This document shows positions 16,812 to 28,805 of a stretch of DNA of 33,468 nt, piece by piece (positions within the stretch are counted from its first letter, which is position 1; each line of letters starts with the position of its first letter). Both the position numbers and the translations under genes were made by a program. The notes under the pieces were generated by a model, which worked only from the letters and a program-made list of their open reading frames with translations, had not been told where the DNA came from and did no database searches. Source of the DNA: Trichodelitschia bisporula (lineage: Eukaryota); the NCBI GenBank assembly GCA_010356995.1, contig ML996710.1:258936-292403 (forward strand), written 5' to 3'.

Positions 16812-17995
16812 ACTCCCATCAAACGGTATCGCAAAGACTCCCGACACGCGGCATTTCGGCACGAACATATTGAGTAGAGGTGAGTTTGCTTCAGGCAGAA
16901 GCCCTCTGGCATCACGACGATCGTGTGGATAGCTTCAGATTCTTCCTAGCTTATCCCCAAATCCACTCACATTTCTCCCAAGTTGGCTGTATCAAGGCTT
17001 TCCGACAACATCGACAATGCCATCCCTTACAATCTGCCACTCCCACTCAACGACGCCTTCGCAAACGGCAGAAAAACACTTCTCCACCACCTCCTCACTC
17101 TGCCCCGACTCCCATCAAGCGACATCGCGAAGAGTCCCGGCACACGGCATTTCGGCACGAACATATTGAGTAAGAGGTGAGTTGCTTCAGGCAGAAACCC
17201 CTCTGGCATCACGACGATCGTGTGGATAGCTTCACATTCTTCCTAGCTTATCCCCAAATCCACTCACATTTCTCCCAAGTTGGCTGTATCAAGGCTTTCC
17301 GACAACATCGACAATGCCATCCCTTACAATCTACCACTTCCACTCAACGATGCCTTCGCAAACGGCAGAAAAACACTTCTCCACCACCTCCTCACTCCGC
17401 CCCGACTCCCATCAAGCGACATCGCGAAGAGTCCCGGCACACGGCATTTCGGCACGAACATATTGAGTAAGAGGTGAGTTGCTTCAGGCAGAAACCCCTC
17501 TGGCATCACGACGATCGTGTGGATAGCTTCACATTCTTCCTAGCTTATCCCCAAATCCACTCACATTTCTCCCAAGTTGGCTGTATCAAGGCTTTCCGAC
17601 AACATCGACAATGCCATCCCTTACAATCTACCACTTCCACTCAACGATGCCTTCGCAAACGGCAGAAAAACACTTCTCCACCACCTCCTCACTCCGCCCC
17701 GACTCCCATCAAACGGCATCGCGAAGAGTCCCGGCACACGGCATTTCGTCACGAAAACTCGTTAAGTGGTCGTCAGCTGCCCGAGGCAAAAATCCTTTGG
17801 CATCACGACGATCGCGCGGATAGCGTCCGGCACTTCATATATTCATCCCGAATCCACACCCATTTCTCCCACGTTAACCTCATTCAGGCTTCCATCAACA
17901 CTCCCCAATGCCATTTGTACCCTACCCTTTCAAACTCGCCCTTACAAACGGCCGAAAATACTTCTCCACCACCTCCTCACTCCGCCACCCACTCC
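16812..17995. repeat. Tandem array of a ~297-bp unit (three near-identical units plus a diverged fourth overlapping the GH5 stop)
   Basis: Anchor ACTCCCATCAA at 16812, 17108, 17405 and 17702; repeated ORFs at 297-nt spacing (16880/17177/17474); CTTCTCCACCACCTCCTCACTC recurs inside the GH5 CDS at ~17961-17982. Confidence 0.95.
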
Positions 17996-19197
17996 AATCT
18001 TTCTTTAACAACCCCCACGCCTCATCAAACTCCTGCTTCCCGCTGCGGATATAATAACTCCCCGACAACACCCACACCATCCACCCAGCCTTGTTCTGCA
18101 CCAGATAGTCCCTCAAACACGTCGCATACACACTTCCCGCCGTCTTCATGTCCTGCGCAAACCCGAACTCACTCATCACGACCGGCAAAACATTCGCTAC
18201 CCCCTTATCACTCTCGTTCAACGCGTTCCATCCGTGGTTGTACAAGCCCCCGCGTATGTTCCCGCAGTTTTTTTCGTTGTTTTGGTAGTTGTGCAGTTCG
18301 AGCGCGATTTTGTTGGGCAGGAAATCGCTCTTTTTGAGCACCTTTGTGTCGCGTACGACGGCCGTGAGATCCGTGTCGAATCCGAATCCGGAGAGAAACA
18401 CGATGAGGCTCGGATTCGCGGCATGCACCTCGCCCGCCGCGGCGCGCATATGCGTGTACCAGTCGCCCCATTTATAACTCCGCTCCTTGAGCTGCGGGTT
18501 ATTATCCGGTGCGCGCAACTCGTTCCGCAGGCCCACACTCCCCAGCGCCGTCCAGCTCCGCGTCTAGGCGATCAGCCTTTCCCCATCAACCCTAGGGGTA
18601 AGCAAGGCGGGCCGCCTGGGGGGGACTCACATAATTCGCCATAAAGCTCCACCCTCGTTTCCACTTCGCAGCATCGAAATCCGTGTCCCCGAACCAGGAA
18701 TTCCCGTCTTTGGTGCTGCAGCACCACGTCGCGCGGGAGATGTGATTGTCCAAATGCACTACTACACCCGCTTTGCCCAACTCCCGTGCCACGAGGTCGA
18801 ACACCTCCAGCCGTCCCGCCTGTTCCCTTAACCCCGCATTCCTCTTTCGTATCTCCCCCCAAACCCTCGTCCCGTTTTCCCGTCCCAAGGCTTTTATCAA
18901 TCCTTCCTTAGCCGGAACGTCGGACCCCCGCGCCACGTGCTCGTCCACCATTTGCGTGGCGTAGGTGAGGCGCACGACGTTCATGCCCAGCGAGGTGATG
19001 TGCCCTGCGATGGAGGCGGCGGATTGGTGCGCTAGGCCCTCTGGGAGCATGGCTTCTTGGTGGCCGGGCCAGTTTGTCCCGGCGTATGTGACGCGTTTGC
19101 CGGCGGCGTCGTGGATCCAGCGGCCGGAGGTTGTGAGGGGGAGGGGGGGGAGGGCGGCGGAGGCGAGCGCCGCGAGGAGGAGGAGGTGCAGGCGCAT
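17922..19197 (-). CDS. Secreted glycoside hydrolase family 5 (subfamily 16-like, putative endo-beta-1,6-galactanase), ~402 aa
   Basis: Signal peptide MRLHLLLLAALASA; exons 19197-18631 and 18563-17922; YAGTNWPG, GMNVVRLTYA, HLDNHISRATWCCS, acid/base GLRNELR, ELHNY, nucleophile VMSEFG, WVLSGSYYIR. Confidence 0.92.
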
Positions 19198-19453
19198 GGT
19201 CGCGGTGGTGTAATGGGAGAGAAAGGTGTTGTGTGTGGGATGTCGTGAGCTTGAGGTGATCATGTTCCTGGTGGTTAGGGCCTAGCTAGATCGCTAAGCG
19301 GGAGAAATTATATTGGGTCGTATATATGGCGCACATCCGCATTGGACACGCTCCGGCGGAGCCGCGTCTTGCACCAATGTCACAGGTAGATCTCACAAGT
19401 CGAAATCTTCTCGAAATCTATGCTAATGTACATCTCCGTGCCCCCCTAACGCC

Positions 19454-23374: not shown

Positions 23375-24286
23375 ATGCTGTCCTCCGTCGCTCTTTTCGC
23401 AGTCCTGGTGCCCGCTGCGCTCGCGCAGGGCGGATGTTCGCCACTTGAGCTGATCTACGCCCGGTAGATCCTCCCCCCCCCCCCGATGAATGGATGAAGC
23501 TGACCTGCTAGTGCGACCACCGAGCCGCCCGCCAAGTACTCCGCAGGACAATTCGACACCGCCGCCGCGCGGTCCTGGAGCAAGGGCTACGGCGCCGCGG
23601 GATACAGTCTGTTTACGAATGTGTCGGCGCTGATTCCGGGCGCGACGGGGTATCCGGTGCATTACCCGGCTGATATGGGCGGGAGCTCGCCGAATGAGGG
23701 CACCGCGGATATGTTGAAGCATATTGAGGAGAGGGCGAAGGCGTGTCCGCAACAGAAGTATGCTCTTGGGGGGCACAGCCAGGTGCGTGATAGAGGGACA
23801 TGATGAGAGGGGGGAGCTAATGTGGTCAGGGTGGATTTGTGACCACTGGTGCTATCCCGAAGATGCCGGCCAACATCCTCTCGCGCATCGTCGCGGTGAC
23901 TATGTTCGGCAGCCCCGCCTGCCCGACGCAGGTGCGCAACCGCTGCATCTCGTACTGCCAGTCCGGCGACAGTGTGTGCGCCAGCCGCGGTGGGGGCAGC
24001 CCGAAGGGCGCGAAGGGCGCGAAGCTCGGCGGTTTGGTGGAAAGGGAGGCGCTGTGGGCGATGGCGGCGCCGGAGTGTGCGCAGTATGCTAGCAAGCCGA
24101 CGAGTGGGCTGGGAAAGGGCGGGCATTTGGGGTACAATGCTGGTGAGTGGGGAGAGCGAGGAGATGGGATTGTGATGCTAATGGGGTACAGATGGCTTGT
24201 ATGTCCGGGCGGCAGCGTGCTACATCGCGGCGCAGTTCAACAAGGGCGGTGGAGCTGCGGGGGGTGCGGCGGCGCTGGAGCAATAG
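23375..24286 (+). CDS. Secreted carbohydrate esterase family 5 (cutinase/acetylxylan esterase-like), ~255 aa
   Basis: Exons 23375-23463, 23512-23782, 23830-24142, 24192-24286; signal peptide, C..LELIYARATTEP, VHYPA, CPQQKYALGGHSQGG, MFGSP, YCQSGDSVC, GHLGY; TATAA at 23310-23314. Confidence 0.9.
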
Positions 24287-24586
24287 TTGAGTATGTATAT
24301 GCAATTCGAGAGCTGATGACTTTGTTGTTGCGTTCATGCTGCGAGCGTTGAAGAGCGATAATGGGGATGAAGTCGGGATGTTGGTGTTGAGAGGGGATGG
24401 AGGGCCCCCTAAAGAAGTCGTAGCTGCCCGGTCCGCAAAAGCGCTAGAATCAGGCGGCTACGACTTTCTCAGTTGCCCGGTGGACCATGGGCTGACAAAG
24501 CATCAACACTTTCGGACAACAACACTTCGCCGCATTCCCAGAACGTCTTTACACTACATCTAAACGCAGTACCATCATCACACTCC

Positions 24587-25751
24587 TCACTTCGCTACGG
24601 CAAACATAATGTTCATCAACGCCATCTCCTCCGCCATCCCACCGCCATGCTGCGTGCGCCTACTTCCATCAGCTCTCTCCGCTTCCTGGGCGCACAAGAC
24701 TTACGGTGGATGTAGTCCATGATCGTAAAACGCCTCAATGGTGACATTATCCCCCTTGACCACCTTGACCGGATCATTGCATATGGTCATATGGTCGATG
24801 GTGAGCCACTCACCCACACCAGACCGGCCATACACCGCCTGGCTGTCGCAGACTTGCTTCCCATTCACGAGAACGAGGATATTGACCCCGCCGTCTAGGA
24901 CCGTCAGCCCGATCTCTAAAAGAAGCAGACAAGCAGAACAACCCACCATGAACATGCCCCCTCGCCGTCACAATATACCCATCTGCCACCACCCTAATCG
25001 GCGCCTTGCTCTTCACACTCCACTTCGTCTGCCCCGCCGGCGCCTTGAACACCCCCCCTCCAAACAGCGAATCGCACTGCCCCGCCGCAACAACCTGCAC
25101 ACTCGTCTCCATCAGCCCCTCCGGCCGGCCAGGCACGTACTCGATCTCCGCAACACTGTACACCGTCTGCTGCTCCGCCCGATAATTAACCACATCCCCA
25201 CCAAGCACCACCCGATCCCTCTCCCCCACCCAGTAACCCGCATTGAACAGCCCATCCCGCGTACTGTACAACACGTCTCCGCGGTCCTCACTTCCGCCCA
25301 TAAAAATACTCACCGGACTCGCCACCCCGCCCCTCGTCCCGCACCCAAAAACCCCTTTCTCCCTATGATCCAAATCCACAAACATGAGATGGTGATTATA
25401 CACCCCCGCGCCCATCCCCGCCGCCGCCCCATCGGCAAACACAACGCTCGCATTCCCCCTCAGCAGCGTCACCCCGCGCGGCCACGCCCCATCCGCGCTG
25501 TAGCTCCACGCCGTCCCCGCGGGGTCCATGCTGAGCGCGTTCCCCGTCCGGGCACTTGCGTTTGCGGCCTTGAGCACGTGCGGCCCGTACCAGATTCGTT
25601 GGCGGATGGCGCCGGCGCGCAGGACGGTTGGGGGGAGGGACTCGATTTTGAAGGGCGCGAGGGGGGCGGGAGCGCTGAAGAGCTGCCGCGGGGAGAGGGT
25701 TGGGGGTAGCGCGGCGGCGCTGGCGGCGAGGAAGAGGGTGGGCAGATGCAT
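24587..25751 (-). CDS. Uncharacterised secreted protein, ~355 aa, with copper type II monooxygenase-like (PHM/DBH, SURNod19-like) motifs
   Basis: Exons 25751-24947, 24894-24705, 24659-24587 with canonical splice and branch sites; signal peptide MHLPTLFLAASAAA; GVYNHHLMF, ARGHVHDGG, C-terminal EEMALM. The gene model is solid; the function is inferred. Confidence 0.82.
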
Positions 25752-26567
25752 CGTAGGTGGTGGAGGGGGTGGTGGGTGTTGGGGGAGTGGGGGGGAGGCA
25801 GGGCGGCGGAGAGGCGGGGTATACATACCGACCGGGACGAGGGTATACGACGCGCATATTGAGCCACGCGCGCTGCTAAATGGTGATGTGTGCTCCGTGG
25901 AGGGACCGTGGAGTATGATGGGTTTTAAAATGGGCCACGGAAGGCTGTTCAATATACCCATGGCTACGGACAGGGTGCTGAGTCAGCTCGTGTAAGTTGT
26001 CCTCTGCGTGTAGGATACGGCGAGGGCGGCCTACGGGAGGGAAGACCGGCGGCGCTGGTACTTGGGCTGTATGTGGACTGGATGAAGATGAGCGTCGGGG
26101 ATAGGATTGAGTCTGAAGTTGGGGGAGAAGTGCTACGGAGTGTCGTTGTCGTTTTAGCATGTATAGTTAGTTTCTCTAAGTATTAGATATAACCATGCTT
26201 CCGATAGGACGTAGGGACGGGCTACGGGAAACTCGTGCGTATGGGCTAGACGGCGATAGATGATGTCAGCTGCAAGGGTGGTCCGGCTTGCAGCCTTTTG
26301 CGCTGCAGATCTTCAGTCTTGCGGCAGCGCGAGGCTGGCGATTATGTGTTACGGTAGTCTCCTCGGAATCACGCGGTGCGAATCGAAACAATCGTCAGAC
26401 CCGGTTCATTTGGGATATCGCCATCGAAATCCTTCATCCCATCATCAACGGACCGGCCGTGAAATTCAATCCACCGCATTCTGCATACCAAAGTCCCAAA
26501 ACTCCACAGTGGCCCATACGATCCAGCCAATTTAGTCTCCAAGCCCACCTCACCCACCACCAACCAC

Positions 26568-28805
26568 CTAAGCCAACGTCATAGTCTCCCCACTCGGCAT
26601 CCTCGCCCCATACTCCAACTTCAGCACACAAGCCTGCCCCTTCCCCAAAGACACATTAAACGCAATCTCTCCCCCCTTCTTCAGCACCGCCGTCGCCCGC
26701 CCCCACTCCTTCCGCCCCTCCACCGCACTCCCCCCAGTCTTCACCGCATCCCCCTCCCGCCCCAACCCCCTCGGCTCCAAAATCTCAATCTTGAGGCGCT
26801 CATCCTGGCTCACCGGCACCTGGTCCAGAACAAGCAGCTCCACGGGCGTGCTCTTGTTGTTGGTTAGGATAACGGAGCGCGTGTACTGGTGGCTGCTTTC
26901 TTTGCTTAGGAAGCCGAGCGTCGCGCGGTGCACCGTCGGCTTCGTATAGCTGACATGCAGCGCCGGATCGACTCCGAGGGAAAGGATGAAGGTTTGACCC
27001 GGCGCCACGCGCGTGAGCACAGTGTTCCCGAGGAAACTCCCATCCAGCGTAACTCCCGCATTCCCGCGCAGCAGCGTAACAGCCGAACTCGGATTGCGCA
27101 CCCGGGCACGCAGAAACGCACTCGCGCGCAACTTCGGGACTGCAATATGGCTCAGGACGATATTCGTCGCCGTGAGCGTTACGATCTTGTGCCTCCGTGC
27201 CAGAGACGAGGGGGCCAGGGTGCGCGTGCCCGGGATTTCGTAAGTCGCAGTTAGGCCGTAGTCCTCCCAGGTTGATTCTTGGAAATCAATGGCCGACTCC
27301 GAGGGCGAGGAGGCGCCGGGGGCGGAGCGGCTGGGGTGGGGCGCGTCCTGGAAGGCGTATGCCAGTTGAATCTTCTGTTGCTGCTCATGCAGTAGCAGTT
27401 GTTGTTGCTGATGCTGCAGTGATATTGGTGCCATTTGCTGGGCGCTGTACATGGCCATTGCCGGCGCCTGCTGCGGCGGGGGAGGGGCGGCGTTGCTGTT
27501 CCCGAAGAGGCCAGTTGTGTTACTGCTGCCGAAGACGCCGCCGCCGCCGGCTTGGGCTGGTTCGGGATACTGCTGCCGCGCCATCCACATCATTTTCTTC
27601 GATGGTGCGCCCATGTTTTTCTCCTTCATGTTCAGCCGCTGCATGTACCCCCCCGGACCCACTTCCTGCGCGTTCAGCAGAGCGTCGCCGTCGGCACTGT
27701 ACCCTAGCTTCACGTTCCACACGTTCATGGTTGGCGGCTTGTCGTCGAGGCCTGAGAAACTGGTCTGCGACGTGCTGAGGCTGACCTTCGCATCGCGCCA
27801 CGTCTCGGACGTGTGGTTCGAGAGTTCGGCGCGGTACGTGATGCTCGCCGTCTTGTTGACGGACGAGACATCGATGTCATACCGCGGGGTCCAGAACGCA
27901 TCGGTCGTCACATACGACAGCTGCAGCGAGACATTGCGCTCTACCTGCTCCGTCCCCTCGTCGAGCTCCTCCGGCGAATTCTTAGACAACGTAACCGACC
28001 CGATCGAGCCGCGCCGCGAGCCAGCCGGCGTGTCGACCGCGGACTCAAGGTTGAGCTTAATGCGGTACGTCTTCAAGGGCCAGAACTTCTCATGCTCGGC
28101 GCGCACCCGGCGTGCCTCGCGACGGAGTTCCTCGCGCTGGCGCCGCGCGGCCCAGCGTGCCGCGTTCTTCTCTTTGAGGGCGGCGACCTTCGCGCGCTGC
28201 GGCTCTTTGTTGGCGCGTTTGCGCTCGGATTCCTTGCGCGCGCGCTGCTTGGTCAGGGAGGCGATGGTGTCGGTAGCGGACTGGCGGATGCCGAAGAGTC
28301 TGTCACGTTCCTTCTCGTAGACAGCGAGGGCATTGCTCAGGGCCTCGGCGGTGCATTCCTTGACTTTAATGTCGGAGAAGTAGGACTGCAGGGTCGCGAA
28401 TTGCTGGTCCACGGAGCCGATGCGGTCTTCCTCGGCGGTGAGTTTGGCGCTCAGCTCTTTAATTTCCTTAGAGAGGGCCTTGACGGTAGGGATGTCGTCG
28501 TCGCTGCACGACTCCTCGTCCGAGGAGTCTTCTTCGCTTTCGGACTCCGAGGGGTACACGTCTTCGAATTCCTCCTTGTTGGGCACGAGGTCGACGGTGA
28601 TGTCGGTGATGGTGACGGATTTGCCACGACCTTCAATTTGGACGGACTGCTCGTCGACGGCGGGGGCGAGACCGTGGATTTCGATCTCGTTGAGGCCTGG
28701 CGCGAGTTGGATGTCGGGGATGTTGCGGACGATGTGGGCGCGGGACGGGTAGAGCGTGACGGATTTGGTGGGGAGGTCCTTGACCTCGAAGATTTGAGGT
28801 GCCAT
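26568..28805 (-). CDS. DUF4140/DUF4139 domain protein (mucoidy-inhibitor-A-like), ~745 aa
   Basis: Intronless ORF with likely start MAPQIFEV; SVTLYPSRAHIVR, coiled-coil middle, LSYVTTDAFWTPRYDI, NHTSETWRDAKVSLST, DGSFLG, LSLGVDP, VLDQVPVSQDERLKI. Confidence 0.9.
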   Translation of the reverse strand: MAPQIFEVKDLPTKSVTLYPSRAHIVRNIPDIQLAPGLNEIEIHGLAPAVDEQSVQIEGRGKSVTITDITVDLVPNKEEFEDVYPSESESEEDSSDEESCSDDDIPTVKALSKEIKELSAKLTAEEDRIGSVDQQFATLQSYFSDIKVKECTAEALSNALAVYEKERDRLFGIRQSATDTIASLTKQRARKESERKRANKEPQRAKVAALKEKNAARWAARRQREELRREARRVRAEHEKFWPLKTYRIKLNLESAVDTPAGSRRGSIGSVTLSKNSPEELDEGTEQVERNVSLQLSYVTTDAFWTPRYDIDVSSVNKTASITYRAELSNHTSETWRDAKVSLSTSQTSFSGLDDKPPTMNVWNVKLGYSADGDALLNAQEVGPGGYMQRLNMKEKNMGAPSKKMMWMARQQYPEPAQAGGGGVFGSSNTTGLFGNSNAAPPPPQQAPAMAMYSAQQMAPISLQHQQQQLLLHEQQQKIQLAYAFQDAPHPSRSAPGASSPSESAIDFQESTWEDYGLTATYEIPGTRTLAPSSLARRHKIVTLTATNIVLSHIAVPKLRASAFLRARVRNPSSAVTLLRGNAGVTLDGSFLGNTVLTRVAPGQTFILSLGVDPALHVSYTKPTVHRATLGFLSKESSHQYTRSVILTNNKSTPVELLVLDQVPVSQDERLKIEILEPRGLGREGDAVKTGGSAVEGRKEWGRATAVLKKGGEIAFNVSLGKGQACVLKLEYGARMPSGETMTLA

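Follow-up and report, generated by a model that had tools for sequence, protein, structure and literature searches.

A divergent SURNod19 protein of Trichodelitschia bisporula is a candidate copper oxygenase with a predicted carboxylate at one copper-ligand histidine position

The closest described systems for the gene reported here are the copper monooxygenases peptidylglycine hydroxylase (PHM) and dopamine beta-hydroxylase (DBH), and the SURNod19 family. In animals, PHM serves to finish peptide hormones, and DBH produces noradrenaline. Passages of two papers give H107, H108 and H172 as the CuH ligands of PHM (PMC6123673, PMC12164859); in the available text of the latter, the mutants H107A, H108A and H172A retain at most about 5% of the activity, and H172A slows hydrogen abstraction 12,000-fold (PMC12164859). 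SURNod19, or MtN19 (PF07712), occurs in plants, Dothideomycete fungi and actinobacteria, and no biochemical function is reported for it in the literature found. All SURNod19 papers among the matches listed concern plants; Nod19 combined with cupredoxin led to a plant ncRNA review, and combined with monooxygenase to plant transcriptome papers. According to excerpts of one study, miR398, the microRNA of copper deficiency, has bean Nod19 among its validated targets, and plant Nod19 falls in copper deficiency (PMC3882225), evidence that concerns a distant plant member of the family. In a 2026 paper on the soybean SURNod19 family, the words 'copper' and 'alphafold' are absent from the main text as available (PMC13355928). 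Searches that covered journals other than subscription ones yielded no title linking Nod19 or SURNod19 to the PHM fold, and no literature on Nod19 with peptidylglycine or on nodulin 19 with copper and monooxygenase; the term fungal type II copper monooxygenase likewise returned no literature. Curated fold databases may already group SURNod19 with the PHM fold, a link that any structure search could reveal.

The window (the whole stretch of 33,468 nt of T. bisporula DNA that was analysed) carries on its minus strand a three-exon gene, organised as the preliminary description of this DNA had proposed; its two GT..AG introns measure 52 and 45 nt. The spliced coding sequence is 1068 nt long and encodes 355 aa plus a stop. 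The parts of the gene are as follows.

25710..25751, minus strand: probable signal peptide, residues about 1-14, judged by hydrophobicity only
24947..25751, minus strand: exon 1, with the predicted signal peptide, the N-terminal jelly-roll with the H-type metal site, and the first strands of the C-terminal domain
24895..24946, minus strand: intron 1, 52 nt, GT..AG; its exact span is skipped by one contig
24705..24894, minus strand: exon 2, the bulk of the C-terminal domain, with C284, C307 and the conserved H330
24660..24704, minus strand: intron 2, 45 nt, GT..AG, backed by homologue C-termini
24587..24659, minus strand: exon 3, with E-E-M344 (Met codon 24625-24623), the putative CuM methionine, equivalent to PHM M314

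The N-terminal 16 or so residues are hydrophobic (9-residue Kyte-Doolittle means 1.0-2.1), and the product is predicted to be secreted. Contigs of two runs presumed to be RNA (one sample, one study) cover the gene body and leave 24334-24534, on the side of the cutinase, uncovered; among the runs listed none is recorded as RNA. The gene is real and looks transcribed. Intron 1 is precisely absent from one of these contigs, which has a depth of 3.4 and a short side of 29 letters. The longest contig retains both introns, two contigs read through intron 2, and no contig of these runs was seen to splice it; in one sample of presumed RNA, such retention proves nothing either way. Separately from the gene's own contig, contigs of the same runs cover a short upstream stretch (25824-26160). 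By the reading frame, retention of intron 2 brings in a stop shortly past H330-P-P, so that the product would lack the Met ligand. The frame of exon 3 is backed by homologue C-termini; P0004, for instance, ends ...HNGGMAEEMAL.... The deposited homologue P0003 has an unrelated C-terminal tail without the Met motif, which fits the idea that the Met exon, formed only by splicing, is easily missed by ORF-level annotation, as had been anticipated for this gene.

The surroundings of the gene contain the following features.

23507-24120, plus strand: cutinase pieces, convergent with the SURNod19 gene
26568-28802, minus strand: one long ORF for a protein with DUF4140, DUF4139 and an insert of low complexity rich in Gln
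17922-19281, minus strand: two ORF pieces, by eye a secreted protein like glycoside hydrolase family 5 (GH5), neither with a Pfam match at E <= 0.001

An aspartyl protease, a GDSL lipase and a serine carboxypeptidase lie upstream of the gene, so that its original placement opposite a cutinase and among secreted hydrolases was accurate. The convergence with the cutinase is taken as location only and is not counted as functional evidence.

On profile evidence, the protein is a divergent SURNod19 member. With the exons scanned separately, exon 1 gave no Pfam match, no exon matched PF01082 or PF03712, and exon 2 alone gave a weak match to SURNod19 that stays below the Pfam cut-off of 25 bits (E 0.08, 12.2 bits). 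Close homologues score 24.9-28.4 bits against PF07712, and one of them, P0018, which is 43% identical to the spliced protein across residues 33-353, exceeds the curated cut-off. Among the 111 aligned homologues, 99 match PF07712 at E <= 0.1, mostly in the C-terminal domain, in agreement with the early suggestion of a SURNod19 link; two match Cu2_monoox_C (PF03712) at the same threshold (best E 0.0058). The Atlas clusters nearest to P0018 are SURNod19 (score 0.95); language-model look-alikes are Cu2_monooxygen clusters, though only at 0.81. The word 'undescribed', applied to the protein at first, therefore holds for its function and not for its family, for which a Pfam name already exists.

The family profile found 1,399 representatives at E <= 0.001. 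Most homologue matches are unnamed, and those with a name belong to Dothideomycete fungi (Trichodelitschia, Tothia, Microthyrium, Venturia, Eremomyces and Coniosporium) and bear no meaningful protein names. The genome of the window itself gave 24 matches, two pairs of which represent one gene each, leaving at least 22 loci; a Pfam search of this genome adds three more places, and six places exceed the PF07712 cut-off. Eighteen distinct loci were examined: HH is present in all 18, HxH lies within one frame in 13, and D/E-x-x-N occurs in 15 (3 Asp, 12 Glu), the other three being uncaught by the pattern. Two of the paralogues (L004/L005, G000:C10:57176-59538) adjoin each other in divergent orientation. 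Outside fungi, 38 of 401 sampled Actinomycetota genomes match, four of which are flagged unpublished and were excluded from later counts. Meanwhile, P0092 as a query in GTDB gave two short weak matches only, and PF07712 matched neither those two genomes nor 14 controls.

For fold comparison, the full-length homologue P0018 was modelled in place of the spliced protein, using an alignment of 111 sequences. The model is all beta (pLDDT 93, pTM 0.90). A Foldseek search, a comparison suggested at the outset, placed DBH and PHM rows first (E 1.4e-6 onward), and in an exhaustive structure search the best entries were PHM, at Z 14.4 (236 aligned, rmsd 5.1) and at Z 13.7, with DBH next (Z 11.4) and then PNGase F (Z 7.8). 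The similarity to PHM is remote in sequence, at 13% identity with an rmsd of about 5 A. The AlphaFold model of exon 1 of the window gene is nearly all beta strand, in keeping with the beta-strand character first read from the letters; it gave no Foldseek match at E <= 0.001, and its top rows by structural alignment are DBH (Z 9.2) and PHM (Z 8.4). That alignment ends with residue 268 on PHM 244 and DBH 414, the second CuM histidines of these enzymes. At the profile level, all 10 rows matched by a bridging profile were PHM chains, at weak E values of 0.26-0.33 and with HH on the HH of PHM, and the C-domain profile matched bacterial PHM-like proteins with 92% probability (E 6e-7), GHLH falling on GHMH and EEM on DEM. 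Searches of PDB sequences with P0013, A2, A3, A8 and A9 returned no PHM; a single bacterial PHM-like protein found nothing relevant among PDB sequences, and the alignment of a two-sequence PHM-like profile was confined to the C-domain. The models thus predict the two-domain PHM/DBH fold that the preliminary description had inferred.

The putative metal ligands and the other residues discussed below are located as follows.

25389..25394, minus strand: H120-H121, equivalent to PHM H107/H108, aligned on the HH of PHM
25284..25286, minus strand: D156, a second conserved acid
25194..25196, minus strand: D186, start of DVVNYR, proposed as third ligand of the H site and as counterpart of PHM H172, by profile alignment on the His of QVHY
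25185..25187, minus strand: N189, a conserved Asn, the final residue of strand E181-189 in the model
24948..24956, minus strand: H266-x-H268, the CuM histidines, equivalent to PHM H242/H244, by conservation and by structural and profile alignment

The HH, HxH and E-E-M motifs recognised beforehand at 25394-25389, 24956-24948 and 24625-24623 thus correspond to H120/H121, H266/H268 and M344. Conservation was counted in 109 fungal-type homologues, drawn from 228 by alignment start (<= residue 100), alignment end (>= 325) and length (<= 480 aa); as the homologues were collected by similarity, the figures are somewhat inflated. H120 and H121 are each present in 109/109, H266 in 106/109 and H268 in 107/109. 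M344 is found in 68 of the 70 homologues that reach its column, the other 39 stopping sooner and mostly resembling unspliced gene calls. This near-invariance, together with the C-domain profile match, supports the HH pair and the HxH..M set of CuM as originally assigned. Four cysteines are also kept (C137 108/109, C226 107/109, C284 109/109, C307 109/109). H330 (24712-24710, minus strand) is present in 103/109 and mostly missing from bacterial members; lying in the loop ahead of the Met, it could be an extra ligand or a substrate contact. Residue 156 is acidic in 101/109 (Asp 65, Glu 36) and Glu in most bacterial members; it aligns with an Asn of PHM and has no acidic counterpart there, and a role as substrate or metal contact is possible.

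The third ligand of the H site is where the family departs from PHM. At positions 186 and 189, neither the window protein nor any of the 109 homologues has His. Position 186 is Asp in 55, Glu in 51, Met in two and Gln in one of the 109, i.e. Asp or Glu in 106; in 26 actinobacterial loci, counted by hand (30 less the 4 unpublished, 20 of the 26 being placed by alignment), Met stands there in 13, an acid (Glu or Asp) in seven and His in six. A column whose exchanges are confined to His, Met, Asp and Glu shows the pattern of a metal ligand. The register was fixed through bacterial PHM-like proteins. A profile of 26 of their N-domains matched rat PHM at E 1.8e-4, with QIHY on QVH172Y of PHM, and revealed a three-residue insertion in rat PHM just ahead of QVH172Y. 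The N-domain profile of the family aligned with the bacterial PHM-like profile without gaps across the strand, putting Asp186 on the His and Asn189 at His+3, although this alignment is weak (probability 14%, E 0.002). According to these sequence comparisons, the second site appears to be altered to His-His-carboxylate, with D186 at the position of PHM His172; N189 is probably structural. The earlier proposal of an altered H site was therefore right as to the change, which appears to run through Asp186 and not through Asn189.

The actinobacterial relatives suggest how electrons may be supplied. A C-terminal cupredoxin-like tail with C-x2-H-P-x(1-3)-M is present in 13/13 loci with Met-186 (L031, L034, L036, L041-L046, L048, L049, L051, L052) and in 0/13 loci with His, Asp or Glu, by a hand count that ignores relatedness, so that the loci are not independent events. 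Pfam gave weak Copper-bind or Cupredoxin_1 matches for six of eight Met forms, all below the curated cut-off, and one Atlas cluster combines SURNod19 (87%) with Copper-bind (43%). Many of the best 120 of 2,863 bacterial matches are automatically named plastocyanin; twelve proteins hand-picked from these 120 comprise nine with Met, eight of which bear the cupredoxin-like tail and one, shorter, does not, plus two with His and one with Glu at position 186, all three lacking the tail. Taken together, the sequences suggest redox catalysis with a second site tuned to the electron donor. Two further kinds of architecture were observed. Five Glu-type bacterial members (L023, L024, L026, L027, L029) are fused to a preceding membrane-spanning region and an extended linker rich in His, an arrangement suggestive of anchoring in the membrane and of a tether that binds metal. 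Meanwhile, two actinobacterial true three-His PHM-like proteins (L053:871-2586, L054:904-2712) have a CxxCH heme-binding motif upstream in the protein, which may be another fused electron carrier on the PHM fold.

Compared with PHM (PDB 1SDW, 1OPM, 6ALA), the window protein shares the predicted two-domain beta-sandwich and secretory pathway, and HH, HxH and the C-terminal E-M in matching order and register. It differs in its low identity, in the Asp at the His172 position, and in its Pfam profile, the homologues giving no Cu2_monooxygen match and, in all but two cases, no Cu2_monoox_C match. PHM R240 stands two residues before H242, and N316 and Y318 of PHM bind peptide. The window protein likewise has an Arg two residues ahead of H266, which is unconserved across the SURNod19 family, but its residues after the Met are unlike N316/Y318, and no lyase partner was seen for it. 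DBH and tyramine beta-monooxygenase (PDB 4ZEL) have the same catalytic-core fold, with H268 on H414; unlike them, the window protein has no DOMON or dimerisation domain, and its third H-site ligand differs. The actinobacterial SURNod19-cupredoxin fusions have the same catalytic core and CuM set but differ in Met-186, in the C-terminal cupredoxin-like domain and in the conserved cysteines, which are mostly absent. PNGase F and related double jelly-rolls have a related fold, yet score far below PHM, and they are not known to carry the His/Met metal sets. The protein most likely works in the manner of PHM but appears to have a carboxylate where the three-His set would have its third member, and for this reason it is not classed as a PHM/DBH member.

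The explanation that we favour, and that we rate as somewhat better than an even chance, is a secreted type II copper-monooxygenase-like SURNod19 enzyme with an intact CuM site, a His-His-carboxylate second site and an outside reductant. Copper on H266/H268/M344 would bind O2 and oxidise a C-H bond in an organic substrate outside the cell, and a second metal, most likely copper, on H120/H121/D186 would supply, store or relay the second electron. A carboxylate ligand should favour Cu(II), which probably makes reduction more difficult here than at the three-His site of PHM, and an outside reductant stronger than ascorbate would be required. As the fungal protein has no fused electron carrier, an extracellular carrier would be needed. 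Alternatively, the domains may be closed, both metals sharing an oxygen species. The divergence among the paralogues, of which there are at least 22, suggests diverse extracellular substrates rather than peptide-hormone amidation; our guess for these substrates is plant-surface or cell-wall compounds. The PHM mutants cut both ways: the near-inactivity of H172A could mean that loss of the His is loss of PHM-type chemistry, and, by analogy, the very importance of the His would require an Asp there to change the chemistry.

Other readings of the same sites were weighed. One, which we consider unlikely, keeps the PHM fold and CuM and places Fe, Mn or Zn on the two His and the carboxylate; the enzyme would then be a mixed-metal oxygenase, or it would work with a single copper, its second metal being structural. 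Two His and one carboxylate are a common ligand set for Fe(II), Mn and Zn, and the conserved acid at position 156 could join such a site; however, close bacterial relatives carry His or Met at 186, residues suited to copper, and those with Met carry a fused cupredoxin-like domain. We give the same low rating to an enzyme that would act as a copper oxidase or peroxygenase, or would handle superoxide, using H2O2 after a priming reduction as an LPMO does, and would not be an O2-coupled monooxygenase. A second site that is hard to reduce suits chemistry without a second electron, and plant Nod19 follows oxidative stress in the excerpts available (PMC3882225). By TM, the P0018 model also agrees best with 6ALA (0.50, the remaining PHM rows listed giving 0.34-0.43), and it is slightly closer to chain A of DBH than to chain B (TM 0.41 and 0.37). 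Passages of the PHM papers mention a closed H108A structure (PMC12164859) and call DBH chain A closed (PMC6123673), and the resemblance of the model to 6ALA is a faint hint of a closed arrangement. Against this, the domain angle of a predicted model weighs little, and both metal sites are strongly conserved.

A non-catalytic secreted copper binder or shuttle on a PHM scaffold seems to us quite improbable. Other fungal enzyme look-alikes serve copper uptake (Bim1/X325). In the available text on PHM, His172 is critical to catalysis (PMC12164859), which would agree with a loss of activity here; but at least 22 paralogues, a complete O2-binding His-His-Met set and carrier-fused relatives fit catalysis better. 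Least credible is the version of the preliminary description in which Asn189 of DVVNYR replaces the third CuH His, which we reject: Asn189 is conserved in 107/109 and, in an ungapped count from the preceding Gly motif, lies at the same distance as the PHM His, but that distance contains the three-residue insertion relative to bacterial PHM-like proteins, the gapless profile alignment places D186 on their His, and position 189 is Asp, Gly, Ser or Trp in the bacterial members with His at 186.

The favoured reading, in which a SURNod19 enzyme keeps its CuM site intact and draws on an outside reductant, makes the protein a candidate new kind of copper oxygenase, predicted to use a carboxylate at the position of one copper-ligand His. 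A broader proposal, which we regard as doubtful, is that SURNod19 of fungi, plants and actinobacteria forms a third, so far unrecognised branch of the copper oxygenases with the PHM fold, one whose second site has been retuned (His, Met, Asp or Glu) to the electron donor, the fungal His-His-carboxylate form being an expanded, LPMO-like secreted class acting on plant polymers or surface lipids. Nature supplies variants with His, Met, Asp or Glu at the position of PHM His172, and these bear on how the two coppers of PHM cooperate. The analysis also leads to a biochemical hypothesis that can be tested, both for Nod19, which has been studied genetically as a family of plant nodulation and stress, and for a fungal family of at least 22 copies in this genome. 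If the fungal form does oxidise plant material, it would represent a new class of secreted oxidative enzyme.
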